In this document: one piece after another, positions 9,857 to 32,929 of the stretch
How the letters are laid out: every line of letters starts with the position of its first letter
How positions within the stretch are numbered: position 1 is the first letter of the stretch
NCBI GenBank assembly: GCA_016193335.1
Contig: JACPSK010000001.1
Span: 111,926-175,925 of the forward strand
Direction of reading: 5' to 3'
From: Candidatus Magasanikiibacteriota bacterium
GTDB taxonomy: Bacteria > Patescibacteriota > Patescibacteriia > Magasanikbacterales > UBA922
DNA length: 64,000 nucleotides
Program-made: the position numbers and the translations under genes
Notes under the pieces: generated by a model
The model's database searches: none
Told to the model about the DNA's origin: nothing
The model's input: the letters and a program-made list of their open reading frames with translations, nothing else

Positions 9857-11845
9857 CTATTTCAAAAGACCAACAATCAACAGGGCAACAATATTGGCAA
9901 CCTTGATCATGGGATTGATAGCAGGCCCTGCCGTGTCTTTGTAAGGGTCTCCCACCGTGTCTCCGGTGACGGCCGCTTTGTGCGCGTCAGAACCTTTGCC
10001 GCCATGGTGGCCGGCTTCAATATATTTTTTCGCGTTGTCCCAGGCTCCGCCTCCGGTGGTCATGGAAATGGCAACGAATATGCCCGTAACAATGGTCCCC
10101 ACCAAAAGACCGCCCAAAGCCGCGGATCCAAGCCAAAAACCAACAGCTATCGGGACAACAACAGGGACAAGCGCCGGCAAAACCATCTGGCCTATGGCCC
10201 CTTTGGTAACAATATCAACACAGGTGGCATAATCCGGTTTGCCGCTTCCGTCCATAATGCCTTTTATCTCTTTAAATTGACGGCGTACTTCACTTACCAC
10301 GTTTCCGGCCACCTTGCCCACAGATTCCATGAGATAGGCACCAAAAAGATAAGGCAGAAGGCCACCAATAAACAAACCTGCCAATACTTTGGGGTCATCT
10401 ATTCTAAAAACAGTGTCCAATCCTCTCTCTGCCAATTTGTGCGTGTAATCCGCGAAAAGAACGAGAGCGGCCAAAGCGGCGCTTCCGATCGCGTAACCTT
10501 TGGTTACCGCTTTGGTGGTATTACCCACCGCATCAAGCGGATCGGTTACTGCCCGCACTTTTTCGTCAAGCTCGGCCATTTCCGCTATACCGCCCGCGTT
10601 GTCTGTAATCGGGCCGTATGAATCTATGGTCACAATAATGCCGGTAAGAGAAAGCATGGCCATGGCGGCGATAGCCACGCCATACAATCCACTCAATGAA
10701 AAAGCCACGAGCATACCGGCCACAATCGCAAGCACGGGAAGGGCGGTGGCTTTCATGGAAACGGCAAGACCAGCTATTACATTGGTGCCATGTCCTGTTT
10801 CGCTTGCTTTGGCAATTGCTTTCACCGGTTTAAATTTTGTTGAAGTGTAGTATTCGGTAATCAGAACCATGAGTCCGGTAAGAGCCACGCCCACAAAAGC
10901 GCTCCAAAATAAATCTGAGCTTGAAATCGCAAGCTGAGCGGAAAAACTCCGACTGAGCGCCCAAAAGCCGAGCAAGGACAGGAGAGCCGCAACAGCCAGC
11001 CCTTTGTATAGAGCATTCATGATATTTTTGCTTGTCTTGCCAAGCTTTATGAAAAAAGTGCCCAGAATGGAAGCTACGATAGAAACAGCGCCTATCATGA
11101 GCGGATACAAAACTGCCGCGTCTTTATCCGGAAGAGTCAAAAATCCGAGCACAATGGCGGCCACGGCTGTAACGGCATAGGTTTCAAACAAGTCTGCGGC
11201 CATGCCGGCGCAGTCGCCCACATTGTCTCCCACATTATCCGCAATAACCGCCGGATTCCTCGGGTCATCCTCAGGAATTCCGGCCTCCACTTTGCCAACC
11301 AAGTCTGCTCCAACATCCGCGGCTTTGGTAAATATGCCGCCTCCGATACGCGCGAATATGGAGATAAGACTGCCTCCAAAAGCCAATCCGAGAAGGGCAT
11401 TTACATCTTTAAAAATAAGATAAAAACCGGAAACTCCCAAAAGGCCCAAACCCACCACGAGGAGCCCTGTTACAGAGCCGCCTTTTACCGCCATGTCCAA
11501 GGCTTCATTCAAGCCTTTTCGCGCGGCTTCGGTGGTACGCACATTGGCCTGAACAGATATGGTCATGCCAAGATAGCCCGCGAATCCGGAGAGCAAAGCT
11601 CCCAGCAAAAATCCGATGCCCGTGTTCAGATCCAAAAAGATCCAAAGCAGGACAAATACAATAAGCGCCACAAGGCTGATGGTTTTGTACTGGCGGCCGA
11701 GATAAGCTCGGGCCCCTTCTTGGATAGCCTTTGCTATAGCCTGCATGCGATCTGTGCCCGCGGGCTGTTTTCGTATCCATTGAATTAAAAAAATACCATA
11801 TACTATCGCAAGAAGGGCCGGCGCGATGCTAAACCAGATGTTCAT
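9857..11845 (-). CDS. hppA: Membrane-bound H+-translocating (V-type) inorganic pyrophosphatase
   Basis: 662 aa polytopic protein with [19 protein letters not shown] and [21 protein letters not shown] signatures. Confidence 0.95.
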
Positions 11846-11935: not shown

Positions 11936-12916
11936 TTAAAAATTTTTATTGCGTCTCTCAACTTTCTTCCCCAAAATAACATAGCCCTGGCTTTCCAGCC
12001 ACCTGCCCAAAGTTATCATTTCAAAAAATGAATAGAGCTCGCAAAGCGCGGTGGAAAAGGGATGCGTGCGTTTTTTGAGATGATACAAGAGGGCGTTCGC
12101 CCATTTGAAAAGCAGAATCTTCCATGACTTGTGTTTCTGAAAAGCCGAATACAATTCGTCCGGATGGACAAAAAACTTGGCCCATACCGAAGCATAGACC
12201 CGCTCTATATCAAAGCCCGCCTGGCTCAACATGCGGAGTAACTCTGCTTTGGAAAATAATGAAATGTGAAATTCAGCGTGCGGATCTGTGTTTAGTCCTT
12301 GCTTCATAAAAAAATTTCTGAGATACGCGTGTCTGCCGAGCTTGGATTCGGCAAACATGGCCAAGACCCCATTCGGACGCAAAACGCGATTTATTTCATC
12401 GAGCCAGAACGGCACGTTTTCCACATGGCCGAGCACGTCTGATGTGTAGAGAGCGTCAAAGGTGGAAGAGCTGAAGGGAAACTGTCTGCCTTCGTAATGA
12501 AAAAATTCCGCGTGGACGCCATGTCTTTTAGCCTGCTCCTTGGCCAGATCCACTTGAAGATTTACCACATCCAAGCCTACCAATTCCGCTTCTCTGCCGA
12601 GCAGACGTTTGAGATCTATGGTCGCTCCTCCGGTGCCGCAACCGAGGTCCAGAACCCGAAAGGGTTCAGTAAGAAGATTTCTGGTTTTGGCCGCTTGTTT
12701 TTTTGCTTTATTGATATACCGGTATAAAAAAAACTTTTTAGGATACAAAAACAACATAAGCCTGTCTTTCAAGCTCAAAGAGCCGGACAAAAATAAGGGC
12801 TTGGCATCCCACATTTCCACGCCTTCTTCTGAAATGCTCCCCCAGCCGCGGCCGGCTGTTTTATGGGAGAAGTCTGATTTTCGCATATTTCTGCTTATTT
12901 TTAGGTATTGTAGCAC
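11936..12916 (-). CDS. Class I SAM-dependent methyltransferase
   Basis: VLDLGCGTGGATIDL (motif I) and LRPNGVLAMF. True start is probably an internal Met (MRKSDF or MWDAKPL). Confidence 0.7.
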   Translation of the reverse strand: MLQYLKISRNMRKSDFSHKTAGRGWGSISEEGVEMWDAKPLFLSGSLSLKDRLMLFLYPKKFFLYRYINKAKKQAAKTRNLLTEPFRVLDLGCGTGGATIDLKRLLGREAELVGLDVVNLQVDLAKEQAKRHGVHAEFFHYEGRQFPFSSSTFDALYTSDVLGHVENVPFWLDEINRVLRPNGVLAMFAESKLGRHAYLRNFFMKQGLNTDPHAEFHISLFSKAELLRMLSQAGFDIERVYASVWAKFFVHPDELYSAFQKHKSWKILLFKWANALLYHLKKRTHPFSTALCELYSFFEMITLGRWLESQGYVILGKKVERRNKNF

Positions 12917-12919
12917 TCC

Positions 12920-12948
12920 TTGACAAAAGCCTCAAAATATGCTATAGT
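12920..12948 (+). promoter_or_regulatory. Near-consensus sigma-70 promoter TTGACA-17-TATAGT
   Basis: cTTGACAaaagcctcaaaatatgcTATAGTg. Drives a ~165-nt structured leader (hairpin GAGAGAGAT...ATCTCTCTC at 13011-13043) and the high-GC ORF fragment at 13124. Confidence 0.6.
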
Positions 12949-13123
12949 GCCCCGCTGTTTTTGTGTCTGCAAAACGGCTTTCCTTGGGTAAAATTACCTT
13001 TAGAGTGTATGAGAGAGATGTTTTTAGTGAAAAAATCTCTCTCATGCCCTCAAACGATCTATTACACGCCGGCCAAGAGGGAGCAGCAGGGCCGGTGAGA
13101 CAACAAGGCACGGAGATAGAAAG

Positions 13124-13238
13124 ATGAAGACGTTCGATTTTGCGAACAAGTTGGAGGCGGTCCAGGTCCTCCTGGCGTACCTCTTCAATGACATGAGCGA
13201 CGCCCTCGAGGAGGCCGGCATCGACGTGGACAGCGACG
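13124..13238 (+). pseudogene. High-GC small ORF (MKTFDFANKLEAVQVLLAYLFNDMSDALEEAGIDVDSD...) truncated by the IS3-family element
   Basis: ATG with SD GGAGATAGAAAG. GC3-rich codons (GAG GCG GTC CAG GTC CTC CTG GCG) unlike the host. The reading frame runs into the IS left inverted repeat at 13239. Coding status and strand are uncertain. Confidence 0.25.
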
Positions 13239-13307
13239 TGACCTGTACCCTGTATAATAGACACAGCGTCTTACGAGCGCTGTGTTTTACTTTTAACGTA
13301 ATTTGTT

Positions 13308-13571
13308 ATGGCATCCCCCATACCCCAGGAGGTCAAGGCAAAGATTTTGTCGTCGATCAAGGATGATGGAGTTTCCATCGCCCAAGCCTCAACTACCTAC
13401 AATGTCACCGAAGAAACCTTACGAAAGTGGCTTAGGGCCACCATTGACAACGGCGGAACCAGTAGCAGTGAAATCCAAAGACTCAGACGAGAAAACCAAC
13501 AACTCAAAGAGATCATTGGAACCCTGCTCCTCGAAAAAGAAGCAACGAAAAAAAATATTACTCGCTCGTGA
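13308..13571 (+). CDS. IS3-family transposase OrfA (HTH plus leucine zipper)
   Basis: 87 aa: MASPIPQEVKAKILSSIKDDGVSIAQASTTYNVTEETLRKWLR (HTH), then a heptad Leu/Ile zipper LRRENQQLKEIIGTLLLEKEA. An A8 run at 13548-13555 sits near its 3' end. Confidence 0.75.
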   Translation: MASPIPQEVKAKILSSIKDDGVSIAQASTTYNVTEETLRKWLRATIDNGGTSSSEIQRLRRENQQLKEIIGTLLLEKEATKKNITRS

Positions 13572-14382
13572 GATGATCGAGCAAAACCCATGGGTTAGCC
13601 GGAAATTGGTGGCCGAGCAATTTGGAATTGCTCGATCCACGCTCTATCTCAAACAAAAACAACTATACAAAGATAAAGGATACTTGGAAGAGATCCTCTC
13701 CGCCATGAGAGAGAATCCATATTACGGACAAAGAAGATTGGCTTTGGTCTTAGGTCGAAATGTTAAGCTCGTAAGGCGCATCATGCGAAAGTATGGTCTA
13801 AAACCAAAGAAAAAAAAGAAGAAACTCAGCAAACCAGAGGATGAAAACAAGCCTCCGAGCGGAATACCCAACAGGTTAAAAACAATCTGTCCCCTACGAC
13901 CTACGGTCGTATATGCCGGAGATTTTACCCATTTTGTTTGGTACGGCACGGTGGTGTATTTAGCGACAGTCCTTGATCTGTTTACTCGAGAAATTGTGGG
14001 ATGGAGCATTGGACTCCATCACAGTGGACCTTTGATCATTGATGCTCTTGAAGACGCCAAGAAACGGCGGGGCACACCGTCGTTGTTCCATTCTGACCAA
14101 GGCAGTGAATACACGAGCCTTGCGTGCAAAGCATGGCTGTTCAAGAACAATATTCTTCCCTCTCAAAGCACCAAATCCAGTCCATGGCAAAACGGATGGC
14201 AAGAATCTTTTTACGGGAGATTCAAACAAGAGTTTGGAAATATCCACCGCTTCAAAACCATTGAAGACTTAATTGAAGCAATTCATCTTCAAATCCACTA
14301 CTACAACAAGAAAAGGATTCACTCGAAGCTTAAAATGGCTCCGGAAAAGTTCTTTTTGTTGCAATCTAAAAAGTGGATTTAA
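13549..14382 (+). CDS. IS3-family transposase OrfB (rve/DDE integrase core), expressed as OrfAB fusion by frameshifting
   Basis: YGQRRLALVLGRNVKLVRRIMRKYGL, DFTHF...LATVLDLFTREIVGW (D), HSDQGSEYTS (D), SPWQNGWQESFYGRFKQE (E). The N-terminal ~80 residues of track ORF 13303..14382 are just the alternate frame of orfA. Confidence 0.75.
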   Translation, partial: KKILLAREMIEQNPWVSRKLVAEQFGIARSTLYLKQKQLYKDKGYLEEILSAMRENPYYGQRRLALVLGRNVKLVRRIMRKYGLKPKKKKKKLSKPEDENKPPSGIPNRLKTICPLRPTVVYAGDFTHFVWYGTVVYLATVLDLFTREIVGWSIGLHHSGPLIIDALEDAKKRRGTPSLFHSDQGSEYTSLACKAWLFKNNILPSQSTKSSPWQNGWQESFYGRFKQEFGNIHRFKTIEDLIEAIHLQIHYYNKKRIHSKLKMAPEKFFLLQSKKWI

Positions 14383-14976
14383 GAACGAACTCGGCGTGTC
14401 TATTATTTGGGGTACTTGTCAGCCTGAGTTTTCTCGAAACCATAGCCGTGGTTTCTCTGCTCAGACGGATAGGAGCAGTATGGATTTGAAAAGAGACATT
14501 TCATCGGCCAAAGCAAGACAAGCCGCGGCCGATGGAACAGATACTTATCGAAGCCTATCCTTTCATAGGATATTTCAAAAAACCTGCAGAAGCCAACCCG
14601 CTTCGCTCTCGCACTCGTCCTCCGGCTTTTTAAAATATGTTATGAAGGGACAGGCTTGTACTTATCCACATGCATTCGAGATTGAACATAAATCAAACAG
14701 ATTTTCTTAGACATTTCTCCCATTTTTTCTTAAAATTGACAAAAACACTCAATTCTGATACACTGAGCACATCTTCATATATTAATGACTAAGCGAGGAA
14801 ACAAACAGATACGAAATTGAGCCATATTATGCGGAAAAAGAGTTATTTATCTTCACTTCCCCGTGTTCTCGAAGCTTCAAGACTTCATATTTTGGGAACA
14901 TACCAGACTGATCATTGGGTATAATAAGACTTCTTTAGTAGTATTCTGTTCCCCTCGTTTTTAACTGAGGTTTTTT

Positions 14977-16509
14977 ATGTCTTTAACGCTTATATACGCC
15001 CTTTTGGCCGCTTGTCTGGGCGGTCTTGTAGGGATAGGTCTTGGCTATGTGATACGCAGGCAATTGGCGCAGGCGCAGGCGAACTCTGTGGAAGCCAAAG
15101 CCGAAAAACTCATGATAGAGGCAAAGAACAAAGAAAAAGAAGTTCTTCTCAAGGCAAAGGAACAATCCATCAAAATAATAGACGAGGCAAAAAAAGAAGA
15201 AGAAAAACGCAGACAAGAACTGAGGAATATCCAGGACAGACTGGAAAAACGCGAAGAAATGTTCGACAAAAAACTCATGGAAGTGGAAGACAGCAAAACA
15301 AAGCTGGAACAAAAAGCGGAACAGATTAAACAAATAAAAGAAAAAATAGACCAATTGAAAGAAGAAGCCGGACTGAAACTCCAGCATATTTCCGGATACG
15401 ACAAAGAACAGGCTCTGGAAGAGCTTTTGGGGAGAGTGGAAGAAGAAAGCAAACTCGCTCTCCAATCGAGAGTCATGAAACTGGACAAAGAAAATAATGA
15501 TTTTTTTGAAGAAAAAGCCAGGAAAATTATTATAGATTCCATGCAACGTTGCGCCGCGAACCATGCCAATGAAAATACGGGCACGGTGGTAAATTTGCCG
15601 AGCGATGAAATGAAAGGCCGCATCATTGGAAAAGACGGCCGCAACATAAAAACCATAGAAAAACTCACCGGCTGCGAACTGATTATAGACGATTCTCCGG
15701 GTATGCTTATTATTTCCGGTTTTTCTCCCATCAGACGCCGCGTTTGCCAAATCGCTATAGAAAAACTGATCAAAGACGGCCGCATTCAGCCGGCAAAAAT
15801 TGAAGAATACATAGAAGAAGCAAAACGTGACTTGGCTCTTGATATCAAAAAAGCCGGAGAAGAAGCTCTGTATGAAATGGGCATTACCGGACTAGACCCC
15901 AAACTGGTATCTATCGTAGGCAGGCTCAAATACAGAACCAGCTATGGCCAAAATGTTTTGAATCATTGTTTGGAAGTGGGATATATCGCGGGCATGATAG
16001 CCCAAGAAGTGGGGATAGACCCTTTTCTCGCCCGAAAAGCAGGCTTCTTCCATGACATCGGAAAATCCATTGACCACGAAACTCAGGGATCTCACACGGT
16101 GATTGGAGAAAAAATACTCAAAAAATTCAATCTGCCCGATGAAATAGCCGAAGTGGCCATGACCCATCATGATACCAATCCTCCTCTGTTGTTGACCAAG
16201 CTCGTTATGGCGGCAGATGCCATATCCGCTTCCAGAATCGGCGCTCGCCGCGACACCTACGAGCAATATGTTCTGCGCCTTGAAGAGCTTGAAAAGGCTG
16301 CCAGCGATTTCCCCGGCATTGAAAAAGTATATGCTATCCAAGCAGGCCGCGAAGTCCGCGTATTCGTAAAACCCGAAGAAGTGGACGATTACGGGGCTTA
16401 TAACCTTGCCAAAGACATAGCGCGGAAAATAGAAAATGAACTGAGCTATCCCGGAGAGATAAAAGTAAACGTGATACGGGAAAACAGAACCATTGAATAC
16501 GCAAGATAA
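14977..16509 (+). CDS. rny: Ribonuclease Y
   Basis: 510 aa. N-terminal TM, long coiled-coil, KH domain GRIIGKDGRNIKTIE, HD domain FFHDIGKSIDHE. Confidence 0.95.
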   Translation: MSLTLIYALLAACLGGLVGIGLGYVIRRQLAQAQANSVEAKAEKLMIEAKNKEKEVLLKAKEQSIKIIDEAKKEEEKRRQELRNIQDRLEKREEMFDKKLMEVEDSKTKLEQKAEQIKQIKEKIDQLKEEAGLKLQHISGYDKEQALEELLGRVEEESKLALQSRVMKLDKENNDFFEEKARKIIIDSMQRCAANHANENTGTVVNLPSDEMKGRIIGKDGRNIKTIEKLTGCELIIDDSPGMLIISGFSPIRRRVCQIAIEKLIKDGRIQPAKIEEYIEEAKRDLALDIKKAGEEALYEMGITGLDPKLVSIVGRLKYRTSYGQNVLNHCLEVGYIAGMIAQEVGIDPFLARKAGFFHDIGKSIDHETQGSHTVIGEKILKKFNLPDEIAEVAMTHHDTNPPLLLTKLVMAADAISASRIGARRDTYEQYVLRLEELEKAASDFPGIEKVYAIQAGREVRVFVKPEEVDDYGAYNLAKDIARKIENELSYPGEIKVNVIRENRTIEYAR

Positions 16510-31646: not shown

Positions 31647-31676
31647 ATTGACAAAATGACATTTTTTTGCTAAAAA
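31647..31676 (+). promoter_or_regulatory. Host-type sigma-70 promoter TTGACA-17-TAAAAA upstream of the high-GC ORF
   Basis: atTGACAaaatgacatttttttgcTAAAAAt with the direct repeat aatgacatt x2. SD GAGGAATGAGGAA lies 4 nt before ATG 31729. Confidence 0.45.
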
Positions 31677-31728
31677 TGGCTCTAACAGCCAAGAAAGGCT
31701 CAGACCAGAAAACGAGGAATGAGGAATC

Positions 31729-32637
31729 ATGAATCAAAGCGCTGAGTACGCCGCGGCCATGGCGCGGAGCTATCTTGTAACCGAAGGGCCGATCATCATC
31801 GGCCGCGGAGCATTGAAGAGCACTGTCATTTTGGAGAGAGGCTGGCAGCCGCATGGCATCACGATCCGTCGCACTTTGGCCGGAGAGGCCGATGTGCTCC
31901 TCATGGCTTCCTACTTCCACCCGTCGATCTTGCGTTTGCTGATCTCGCGAAGCGAGAACGGCGATTTGCTCCTGGATCCCGAGTGGATCCGCGGCGCCTA
32001 CTTTGGTGGCAAGCGGCTTCGGGTCTTTCCGGGCAAGCCCTCATTCTCAGACATGCCCCGGGCCCAGACCGCGGTGCATGTGGAGGGCGGCTTCCTCGCA
32101 AGCAGGAATGGCGAGCGGCTCTTTTGGCGCTTTCACAAGAATGCTGAAGGAAGCTGGGCGCTAGACACTGTTGTGGAGAAGGCCTTCCGGCTGCCTGGAA
32201 ACAGACGAACCGCGGTCTACTCGGCCCTGGCAACGCCCGGCTATTTCTATACAGTGGAAGCCAACAGGGCTCTCACCGAACGGTTCTGGCTGCTGCGATG
32301 CTACGAGCACCTCGAGGGTTCGAGGTTCCGCTGCGTTGCAGAACACCGGATTCCGGAGTTCGTATACGGCGTGGCTATGAGGCCAGGCGACAGTACCGGT
32401 CTCTGGCTGATTACCGACTACCGCTGCAGCGGCTGGACCCACGGCGTCTGGCGAGTGGAACTCGGCGTTCCGGGTTCTGAGCGCCTCATGGCCGACGGCT
32501 ATTGGGGCACTGGAATCGGATTCCTGAGCGACAAAACCTTGGTCCTGGCCCGCTACGGCGAATCGCACCCAGATCCGCTTGGCGGAATCCCGGGCGCCCT
32601 GGTCTTTGTGCCGGCAAACATGGTCGGCGAACCATAG
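31729..32637 (+). CDS. Hypothetical protein encoded on a ~62% GC island (probable horizontally acquired gene), function unknown
   Basis: 302 aa. Strongly GC3-biased codons (GCC GCG GCC ATG GCG CGG AGC...) against a ~43% GC background. The composition changes exactly at the ATG and decays ~190 nt after the stop. No recognisable catalytic motif; Trp/Arg-rich. Confidence 0.6.
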   Translation: MNQSAEYAAAMARSYLVTEGPIIIGRGALKSTVILERGWQPHGITIRRTLAGEADVLLMASYFHPSILRLLISRSENGDLLLDPEWIRGAYFGGKRLRVFPGKPSFSDMPRAQTAVHVEGGFLASRNGERLFWRFHKNAEGSWALDTVVEKAFRLPGNRRTAVYSALATPGYFYTVEANRALTERFWLLRCYEHLEGSRFRCVAEHRIPEFVYGVAMRPGDSTGLWLITDYRCSGWTHGVWRVELGVPGSERLMADGYWGTGIGFLSDKTLVLARYGESHPDPLGGIPGALVFVPANMVGEP

Positions 32638-32929
32638 AAATTCCTGTCCCGACTTGGTCGGGACAAACCCAGGTCTTAGTGACCTGCGGCACGACGGCCG
32701 AGGACCGTCGCTTCACCGCTACTTCGAAGACATTCGGGCTAGCGGCGAGGCAGTTAGGCTCTTTAACAAAGGAAGGCTGTGGTGGACAAGATCAAGCAGG
32801 TTCTTGGATTTGCTTTCATGGCGGCGGTCTCTAGCCTTGGTATGATAGTGGGTGGGGGCCGAATATTTTAGGTCTAGTATTTTGGGTTTCTGTATTACAA
32901 TCACATGAATGTTTAGACTGATAATCTGG

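Follow-up and report, generated by a model that had tools for sequence, protein, structure and literature searches.

A probable IS3-family insertion scar in a lineage-specific gene upstream of rny in Candidatus Magasanikbacteria

In a Candidatus Magasanikbacteria (CPR) genome, the variable slot between a SAM-methyltransferase gene and rny (positions 12918-14620 of the window, the 64-kb stretch of DNA analysed here) consists of three parts: the 5' end of a gene at 12920-13238, an insertion sequence (IS) at 13239-14421 and hairpin-rich DNA at 14422-14620 (Table 1). This arrangement is probably a scar, produced by insertion of the IS into a lineage-specific gene and a later rearrangement, with the gene now dead. 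An IS3-family element would have landed in codon 39 of the gene, and an IS-adjacent deletion, or a recombination between two IS copies, would then have joined the right IS end to unrelated DNA. Since the target-site duplication and about 0.6 kb of the gene are missing, we infer that a deletion or inter-IS recombination followed the insertion. The order of the events is also inferred, and the gene could already have been a fragment before the IS arrived. Scars of IS-adjacent deletion or inter-IS recombination are a general phenomenon. They show a single IS with non-contiguous flanks, one of them a truncated gene and the other unrelated DNA, and no target-site duplication; in the present case the lost DNA would be the rest of the gene and possibly truB.

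Table 1. Features of the slot and of the adjoining rny upstream region (window positions)
Feature	Position	Strand	Basis or remark
Sigma-70-type promoter TTGACA-17-TATAGT with TG (extended -10)	12920-12948	+	promoter scoring
5' leader, ~170 nt	12955-13123	+	start predicted from the -10 box; fold z = -4.7
Truncated gene, first 38 codons plus 1 nt	13124-13238	+	homologous to aa 6-41 of P0126
Complete IS3-family insertion sequence, 1183 bp	13239-14421	+	inverted repeats, ORFs, family models
IRL TGACCTGTACCCTGTATAATAGACAC	13239-13264	+	21/26 identical to reverse complement of IRR
Terminator-like hairpin inside IRL, 5' of orfA	13259-13287	+	11 pairs, 5 of them G-C; 7-nt loop; tail TACTTTT
orfA, 87 aa, HTH_Tnp_1	13308-13571	+	Pfam match
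orfB, DDE/rve transposase domain	13573-14382	+	Pfam rve, E = 2.7e-20
IRR	14396-14421	-	terminal TTGTCA at 14416-14421, -35-like hexamer
Hairpin-rich segment, 199 bp	14422-14620		stem counts; fold z = -3.0
Native rny upstream region	14621-14976	+	right limit of the remodelled slot; alignment with sister contig L094
rny promoter TTGACA-17-TACACT	14736-14764	+	promoter calling

Most relatives carry truB in the slot between the methyltransferase gene and rny, and in one case another gene is found there. In the window truB is absent. Both IS flanks were searched by tblastn and with a profile of 12 truB sequences, and only negative scores were obtained; truB remnants in the flanks were therefore rejected. 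On the right side, the blastn alignment of the sister contig L094 to the window begins at 14660 and continues with 88% identity; judged by eye, the likeness reaches the start of L094 at about 14620. The rny gene retains its own conserved promoter and is probably unaffected by the truncation. Scans of genomes and metagenomes with RNase Y gave no IS-free allele of the species, only relatives with at most 79% identity.

To the left of the IS, an ORF starts at ATG 13124 (MKTFDF...VDSD) and runs as far as codon 39, where the IS cuts it off at 13239, exactly as initially annotated. By its sequence it is true coding DNA, the 5' end of a real gene. The GC contents of the three codon positions are 0.61, 0.24 and 0.92, and the host genes have a GC3 of about 0.45. 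The third position is G or C in 35 of the 38 codons, whereas none of 16,925 host-gene windows of 38 codons reaches 30. The ORF had been described as high-GC, which is correct for the third codon positions; the 59% GC of the region 13061-13238 is reached by many 150-nt windows of the same contig. The exceptional signal of the fragment is its codon phase and not its bulk GC. The called genes around it have to be corrected: the 80-aa 'gene' is a chimera, and the 110-aa 'gene' called in Logan contigs on the minus strand (12932-13264) is, from the codon phase, an in-phase antisense shadow of the high-GC3 frame.

Searches of Pfam, NCBIfam, PHROGs, PADLOC and PDB sequences gave no match for the fragment. 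With an exhaustive HMMER search of 1.84 billion representatives, one homologue was found, the protein P0126, with 78% identity over 36 aa (E = 2.6e-9). The fragment contains the shared N-terminal helix motif F-D-x-A-N-x-L-E-A-x-x-V-L-L-x-Y-L-F-N-D-M-S-x-A-L-E-E-A-G. P0126 is encoded by a gene of 71% GC on L104, a 1.5-kb contig from a sample that also holds the sister strain. The initial annotation had spoken of a small ORF; the intact homologue is 240 aa long. It reads on past the end of the fragment as ...VDSDDKRAMAH..., and L104 carries no IS. The AlphaFold2 (AF2) model and the motif suggest a pair of helices at the N-terminus, a disordered acidic middle part and a zinc ribbon at the C-terminus; the mean pLDDT is 59 and is highest in the zinc-ribbon region. 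The C-terminus has the pattern CxxC-(12 residues)-CxxC, with weak Pfam matches to DZR PF12773 and Zn_ribbon_15 PF17032 (E = 4e-4 and 1.4e-3, below the Pfam cut-offs). A second ORF on L104 opens with a related motif, ...LQALHILLTYLCNEL.

The copy in the window has aa 1-38 only of this architecture of helices, acidic disordered region and CxxC...CxxC, and roughly covers the first helix, which the AF2 model sets at aa 6-33. In the 64-kb window, tblastn found aa 6-41 of P0126 and no other part of it. The gene is dead in this genome and the window copy is a remnant, because the rest of the gene, about 0.6 kb, is missing.

When P0126 was searched against 5.8 billion proteins, only P0126 itself was returned. 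No relatives were found by tblastn in plasmids and phages or in a scan of viral contigs, and NCBIfam, PHROGs, PADLOC and PDB sequences gave no match. P0126 resembles the zinc-ribbon domain proteins (PF12773, PF17032) in its CxxC end, a part that the window copy does not have, and its N-terminal helical domain and acidic middle have no known relatives (HMMER, 5.8-billion-protein search, PHROGs, PADLOC, PDB). The idea of a DNA mimic or a non-coding RNA found no match in Rfam, PHROGs, PADLOC, Pfam or PDB. The fragment (9 D/E vs 2 K/R) and P0126 (55 D/E vs 22 K/R) have a strong net negative charge in common with DNA mimics such as Ocr and ArdA. However, the acidic region of P0126 is predicted to be disordered, whereas the mimics present a rigid DNA-like surface, and the likeness is one of charge alone. 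The grouping as P0126-like acidic zinc-ribbon proteins is provisional and comprises two sequences, with the intact homologue known from the single 1.5-kb contig.

The similarity to L104 extends upstream of the coding region. The promoter in front of the fragment agrees with the consensus at 11 of 12 positions plus the TG and is the top site within 12000-15500, confirming the initial annotation. A homologous promoter, TTGACA-18-TATGTT, precedes the intact gene on L104. The leader had been described as about 165 nt long with a 9-bp hairpin. The hairpin is real, and its perfect stem is longer, with 11 bp at 13009-13019/13035-13045 inside extended arms of 25 nt each that are 84% complementary (13000-13024/13030-13054). 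A second, GC-rich hairpin (CCGGCC/GGCCGG) follows at 13069-13095, and a GGAG is located about 9 nt 5' of the ATG. Between the window and L104 the leader hairpin and the GC-rich UTR are about 75% identical; the main stem shows one compensatory change, G-C to A-U, and two compensated pairs are found overall. Since L104 has a homologous promoter, hairpin leader, UTR and a 78%-identical N-terminus, the unit is, at the sequence level, a real, conserved and lineage-specific cassette. The L104 homology thus supports the earlier proposal that the IS interrupts a compositionally aberrant unit with its own strong promoter and structured leader.

Just 5' of the TTGACA, the 40 nt of the window and of L104 are unrelated (6/40 identical), and the 193 nt 5' of the L104 promoter do not contain the methyltransferase gene. 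The sequence comparison places the promoter at 12920 in the cassette and not in the ancestral locus. The genome's native promoters at 14736 and 31648 have the same TTGACAAAA form. The promoter probably remains active and should transcribe the leader together with the 80-aa chimeric ORF, which ends at 13366 inside the IS.

The identification of an IS3 element at 13239-14421 was borne out. Its ends are of the TG...CA type (TGACCTGTACCC... and ...GGGTACTTGTCA), and its 26-nt inverted repeats, which match at 21 positions, fall within the 20-40 bp typical of the family. OrfB alone scores 211 bits with the NCBIfam model transpos_IS3 (NF033516, cut-off 160). An A8 run at 13548-13555 is located near the end of orfA, at the orfA/orfB overlap. 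The reading frame of orfB has no stop from 13303 onward and is shifted by +1 against that of orfA; when one A is removed from the run, both are fused into a 357-aa OrfAB that scores 245 bits against the same cut-off and covers model positions 1-365 of 369. In the IS1447 group, transcriptional slippage on an A-run fuses OrfA and OrfB (PMC6211511; Baranov et al. 2005, PMC1088944). Such slippage-type members are like the window IS in their 1.18 kb, the TG...CA repeats, the HTH OrfA followed by an rve/DDE OrfB and the A8 run at the overlap. In IS1447 the slippage adds 1 nt, whereas in the window IS either an mRNA lacking one A or a ribosome that shifts by +1 is needed for the fusion. Classical IS3 uses a -1 ribosomal frameshift, unlike the +1 arrangement here. 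Transcriptional slippage would fit this arrangement, and so would a disabling insertion of 1 nt.

IS3 elements move by copy-out/paste-in via a circle, in which the abutted ends form a strong junction promoter. For IS911 and IS2 the -35-like hexamer of this promoter is known to lie at the tip of the IRR and its -10 box in the IRL. In the window IS, TGTATAAT at 13251-13258 in the IRL, with a perfect -10, is one half of a possible promoter of this kind. When IRR and IRL are joined with a 3-bp spacer, TTGTCA-17-TATAAT is formed, and a functional circle-junction promoter is possible from these parts. The same combination of IRR tip and IRL has been described for the IS3 family (PMC3219604). The terminator-like hairpin 5' of orfA may serve to block read-through that comes from the strong promoter outside the IS.

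Members of the IS3 family duplicate 3-4 bp (rarely 5 bp) of their target, whereas the flanks of the window copy, ...GCGACG and GCCTGA..., show no target-site duplication. We attribute the lack to a secondary rearrangement of this copy and do not take it for a trait of the family. With IS3 transposases from plasmids, the transposase shares no more than 35% identity. The IS is single-copy in the window, and all 11 contigs with this OrfB show the same locus. The flanks are not internal IS sequence: the IS is complete within its repeats, and the left flank runs on into an IS-free gene on L104.

The segment to the right of the IS had been described as moderately GC-rich and packed with hairpins. 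All four hairpins are present, whereas the GC content is only 48.7% compared to 44.3% for the window. We counted six perfect 6-bp stem seeds; shuffled sequences gave 1.0 +/- 1.3, with six or more in 11 of 1000, and the hairpin count is in the top 3.4% of windows in this contig. The segment has no GC3 codon periodicity, its GC3 being about 0.5 past the junction vs 0.92 before it; its similarity to L104 is not above the shuffle level, and it is not repeated within the window. Rfam 15, searched with 12700-15000, returned only miRNA-type noise with E > 0.07 and nothing relevant, whether at the gathering thresholds or up to E = 10; in the whole window it found only two tRNAs. The frames of the segment had no match in Pfam, NCBIfam, PHROGs, PADLOC or PDB, and no homologue was found among 77 related loci. 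Exact-pattern scans of viral contigs with two of the hairpins gave no match. The possible 76-aa ORF at 14481 does exist, and a Shine-Dalgarno-type GGAG precedes it by 5 nt; it matched no family and was called by none of the gene callers behind the contigs. The proposed terminator-like GGCTTTTT has no stem before it and was not called as a terminator.

From its sequence, the right flank is neither a continuation of the truncated gene nor a truB remnant. Its ends coincide with recurrent Logan contig ends at 14421 and 14621/14626. The segment may be native, its sister-strain counterpart having been missed because the first position of L094 falls precisely on the right-hand boundary. At 14621-14626, a 6-bp TCCGGC duplication or core was considered as an element boundary and rejected: no partner copy is found on the + strand between 11284 and 14621, and the contigs are unbroken across the inverted copy at 12782.

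The initial annotation favoured a simple insertion into an acidic ORF of about 60 aa or a non-coding RNA, both halves being present and restored as a cassette when 13239-14421 is excised. The excision does yield an open 60-codon frame ending ...GLSFLETIAVVSLLRRIGAVWI, so the arithmetic was correct, and both flanks are more structured than shuffles. However, the right flank shows no target-site duplication, no GC3 periodicity and no similarity to L104, and the rejoined 60-aa peptide is therefore an artefact. The GC3 drops from 0.92 to about 0.5 across the junction, and the intact homologue continues for 240 aa with a sequence to which the right flank is dissimilar. By blastn, the rejoined flanks had no match in plasmids and phages, and among 5.8 billion proteins the 60-aa peptide found only itself and the window's own 80-aa gene call. 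We consider a simple insertion very improbable. It is also unlikely, although less strongly so, that the 199-bp segment, native or imported, functions as a small RNA or in cis as a regulatory element of the rny region and is merely a neighbour of the IS. Its four clean hairpins, fold score and high hairpin count, the position in a long non-coding region 5' of rny and the lack of a credible ORF would agree with such a function. Against it stand the missing Rfam family even at E = 10, the missing homologues in the 77 related loci, plasmids, phages and viral contigs, and the promoter calls before the segment, which are limited to weak IS-end sites; the structure signal is modest and comes from one sequence.

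We also considered that one piece of foreign DNA, already rearranged in a donor, brought in the whole block of three parts or the IS together with one flank. The coding fragment is compositionally foreign, the slot is variable among relatives, the L104 homology begins abruptly at the -35 box, and in six runs contigs break off at its right limit, 14621/14626, about where L094 starts. Yet the promoter has the same TTGACAAAA form as the native ones, the IS has a host-like GC of 0.44, no collection searched contained a donor sequence, and the intact cassette is tied to the lineage by a palindrome common to L104 and L094, which come from the same run. A single foreign block is, in our estimate, distinctly unlikely. 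The junctions did not arise in assembly. In ten different runs, Logan contigs agree with the window at 100% identity, and in a second NCBI MAG a 686-kb contig encodes the same RNase Y and the same methyltransferase, separated by two genes. The genome is metagenome-assembled and Logan contigs often end at the junctions, as would be expected if a high-GC fragment or the IS had been misjoined in the MAG. But seven independent contigs from different runs (L006, L088, L091, L092, L093, L101 and L103) cross both IS junctions with 100% identity and the second MAG has the same gene order, so that we give practically no weight to a chimera. Some samples contain other alleles, as seen from the contigs that end at 13238, 14421 and 14621/14626. 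A further contig end, at 13075, is not a structural boundary and corresponds to a 30-nt overlap between SNP haplotypes; the odd 18 nt that open L102, considered as an alternative allele, are a Nextera adapter.

An unrelated 302-aa gene at 31729-32637 is also compositionally extreme. The GC3 of the two extreme genes ranges from 0.73 to 0.92, with about 0.45 for the genome. Both have a host-type TTGACAAAA promoter and, downstream, the same lineage-specific CCCGAC..GTCGGG palindrome; in the case of the truncated gene, the palindrome is known solely from L104, where it follows the intact homologue. That the two belong to an orphan set acquired from a high-GC partner organism or its mobile elements is a speculation that we hold to be improbable. 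If true, the orphan genes would give a clue to the host on which this CPR lineage depends, and the IS would be in the course of purging one of the genes.

Taken together, our results suggest that the locus is an ordinary IS scar in an unusual orphan gene and not a working small-peptide or RNA cassette. The event itself, a truncation by an IS3-family element plus a secondary deletion, would be of a textbook kind. The IS is an apparently intact, divergent IS3 member in a CPR host with an unusual +1 orfA/orfB arrangement. The scar has uncovered a strongly promoted orphan gene for an acidic zinc-ribbon protein, of 71% GC in its intact form and known from only two sequences. Of these points, only the orphan gene could open a further lead, to a case of horizontal transfer into CPR bacteria or to a highly expressed factor, and the window has no more than a dead fragment of it.

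The coding fragment left of the IS was found to be the start of a real gene. The ORF described from its ATG was confirmed to run for 38 codons up to the IS end. The GC content of 59%, initially called high, is not rare on this contig; the rare part is the codon-phase pattern, with GC1/2/3 of 0.61/0.24/0.92. None of 16,925 host-gene windows of 38 codons reaches even 30 G/C third positions. We conclude that the 38-codon frame is real coding sequence with a composition foreign to this genome. A minus-strand ORF of 110 aa, proposed by some gene callers, reads the same triplets antisense and was rejected as a shadow ORF. The promoter ahead of the frame was present and was the best site in the region (11/12 plus TG). 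The leader hairpin was also found, but the stem of 9 bp assigned to it was too short, since the stem is perfect over 11 bp and its extended arms are 84% complementary. The leader folds with a z of -4.7 against shuffles.

When the 38-aa fragment was searched exhaustively with HMMER, P0126, a protein of 240 aa, was the sole homologue (78% identity, aa 3-38 against aa 6-41, E = 2.6e-9). The P0126 gene lies on L104, a Logan contig of 1540 bp from run SRR22387949, and is preceded there by counterparts of the window's promoter, long leader hairpin and GC-rich UTR. The same run gave L094, a contig of a sister strain with a rny region 88% identical to the window. Since L104 and L094 also have a 19-nt palindrome TCCCGACTGAGTCGGGA in common, which occurs in the sister strain as small insertions, L104 very probably belongs to the sister-strain genome. 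The homology between the window and L104 starts abruptly at the -35 box, and the 40 nt 5' of it are unrelated (6/40 identical). Therefore, the promoter and the leader are parts of the cassette, as the initial annotation had suggested. In the window, the sequence just 5' of this -35 box is the methyltransferase promoter, with a -10 motif that is kept in relatives. P0126 is acidic (55 D/E vs 22 K/R), and no known-family, phage, defence or PDB relative of it was found. A single-sequence AF2 model (mean pLDDT 59) had two helices at the N-terminus, followed by a disordered middle part and, at the C-terminus, a zinc ribbon. Directly 3' of the high-GC gene, a second ORF of ordinary GC with the related N-terminal motif LDTQKIKALSKELQALHILLTYLCNEL resembles a tandem paralogue, a hint that the family is native with only one copy GC-rich.

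Coordinates and properties of the features at the locus and on the compared contigs
Feature	Position	Detail
Methyltransferase -10 box (extended)	window 12907-12915, minus strand	TGCTACAAT; in relatives TATTGTAGCAT or TATTGTACCAT
Cassette promoter	window 12920-12948	TTGACA-17-TATAGT
Leader hairpin arms	window 13000-13024/13030-13054	
38-codon fragment, ATG	window 13124	
IS element	window 13239-14421	
Terminator-like hairpin	window 13259-13287	between IRL and orfA
A8 run	window 13548-13555	orfA/orfB overlap
rny upstream region	window 14621-14976	
rny promoter	window 14736-14764	TTGACA-17-TACACT
Recurrent Logan contig end	window 13238	one run
Recurrent Logan contig end	window 14421	one run
Recurrent Logan contig end	window 14621	three runs
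Recurrent Logan contig end	window 14626	five runs
Recurrent Logan ends in host genes	window 9951-9953, 11987-11996	several runs
Compositional outlier region	window 31648-32667	
302-aa orphan gene	window 31729-32637	GC 0.61, GC3 0.73
Palindrome (T)TGTCCCGACTSAGTCGGGATTAAT	L104 1247-1266; L094 1970-1988, 2085-2103; window 32648-32662	
L104 promoter		TTGACA-18-TATGTT
L104 leader hairpin		long; one G-C to A-U compensated pair vs window
L104 GC-rich UTR		~74% identical to window
L104 gene (P0126)		71% GC, GC3 0.92
Second L104 ORF	L104 1458-1540	
Different gene in methyltransferase-rny slot	L051 2727-4088	453 aa; one relative

The IS3-family element that interrupts this gene was confirmed as complete, with 1183 bp and TG...CA inverted repeats matching at 21/26 positions. 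OrfA carries HTH_Tnp_1, and OrfB carries rve and scored 211 bits with NCBIfam transpos_IS3 (cut-off 160). The orfB frame is +1 relative to orfA. When one A of the run was removed in silico, a 357-aa protein was obtained that covered positions 1-365 of 369 of the IS3 model at 245 bits. This arrangement fits either transcriptional slippage of -1 nt at the A-run or a disabling 1-nt insertion. Such slippage is known in some IS3 members (PMC6211511, PMC1088944). The loss of one A needed here is unlike both the classical -1 ribosomal frameshift and the slippage of IS1447, which is +1 nt. If the IS ends were joined in a circle with 3 bp between them, TTGTCA at the tip of the IRR and TGTATAAT of the IRL would form a promoter TTGTCA-17-TATAAT, an arrangement described for the IS3 family (PMC3219604). 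The transposase shares no more than 35% identity with its plasmid-borne relatives, and all 11 OrfB-bearing contigs show the locus of the window. Since the inverted repeats enclose the whole element, neither flank is part of the IS.

Excision of the IS yields an ORF of 60 aa, which had been read as a small gene rejoined across the insertion. The intact gene, however, reads DKRAMAH after VDSD and extends to 240 aa. The right flank had no similarity above shuffle level to any part of L104 and no third-position GC bias, and no target-site duplication was found (GCGACG left, GCCTGA right of the IS). The rejoined ORF is therefore an artefact. The rejoined peptide had no relative among 5.8 billion proteins. 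The four hairpins noted in the right flank were all present; six perfect 6-bp stems, where shuffles average 1.0, place the flank among the top 3.4% of windows and, with a fold z of -3.0, make its hairpins moderately unusual. These 199 bp had no Rfam, Pfam, plasmid, phage or viral match and no other copy in the window. An assembly chimera is ruled out by the Logan contigs, which were 100% identical to the window in ten runs and crossed both IS junctions in seven cases. The two flanks were either not adjacent at insertion or separated later. The standard explanation for non-contiguous flanks, a deletion next to the IS or recombination between two copies of it, probably applies here.

The window is part of contig CAYOIR010000002.1 (MAG GCA_964404105.1), and its RNase Y relatives assign it to Candidatus Magasanikbacteria of the CPR/Patescibacteria. 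At the locus, H+-PPase(-) and SAM-methyltransferase(-) come before the region studied here, and rny(+) and HU(+) come after it. Among related Magasanikbacteria (loci L012-L067), the methyltransferase-rny slot usually holds truB, is sometimes empty and once holds a different gene. No truB was found anywhere in the 64-kb window, and a profile of 12 truB sequences scored negative on both IS flanks; truB could have been lost from the genome or relocated outside the window. With truB usual, absent or replaced among relatives and missing here, the slot is evolutionarily variable. The methyltransferase (316 aa, minus strand) probably starts at ATG 12886 rather than at GTG 12916 or ATG 12814. Its -10 box lies ~20 nt ahead of the start codon here and 10-20 nt in relatives, a short distance that suggests very short or leaderless mRNAs. 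From 14660 rightwards, the window aligned with the sister strain by blastn, and likeness was seen by eye back to ~14620; judged by this, the DNA right of ~14620, including the rny promoter, is native. Some 210 nt follow this promoter in the long rny upstream region, which is also conserved in the sister strain and could act as a regulatory leader.

In a second NCBI MAG, two genes separate the genes for a methyltransferase and an RNase Y that are identical to those of the window. The sister contig L094 starts at ~14620, close to the recurrent contig ends at 14621 and 14626. The recurrent ends at the locus are branch points of the assembly graph, so other alleles of the locus are present in the samples as SNP or structural variants. 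The recurrent ends inside host genes show that several strains or haplotypes of the species co-exist in the sampled sites. Positions 1-18 of contig L102, considered as an alternative junction, are the Nextera mosaic-end adapter AGATGTGTATAAGAGACAG, a contamination in the public assembly.

A 302-aa orphan gene is a second compositional outlier in the window and had no Pfam, NCBIfam, PHROGs, PADLOC or plasmid match. It is preceded at 31648 by a host-type promoter, TTGACAAAA...TGCTAAAAAT, and followed by the palindrome CCCGACTTGGTCGGG, a single copy in the window. On L104, the palindrome (T)TGTCCCGACTSAGTCGGGATTAAT also lies 3' of the high-GC gene in its intact form, and it is inserted twice in the sister rny-HU spacer, where the window has no insertion. 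It is lineage-specific and REP- or MITE-like.

Taken together, a disrupted cassette of foreign composition with its own promoter and leader was borne out, whereas the small ORF and the right flank as its other half were not. In the window genome the cassette gene would be inactivated. Its strong promoter should still fire and produce the leader and a chimeric ORF of 80 aa ending at 13366 inside the IS. The terminator-like hairpin would be well placed to shield the transposase from this read-through, and rny, at a distance of 555 bp, has a conserved promoter of its own. The IS3-family element, a divergent one, and the pseudogene generated by the IS are both of known kinds; the sole unusual item is the orphan gene of 71% GC, of which two sequences are known.
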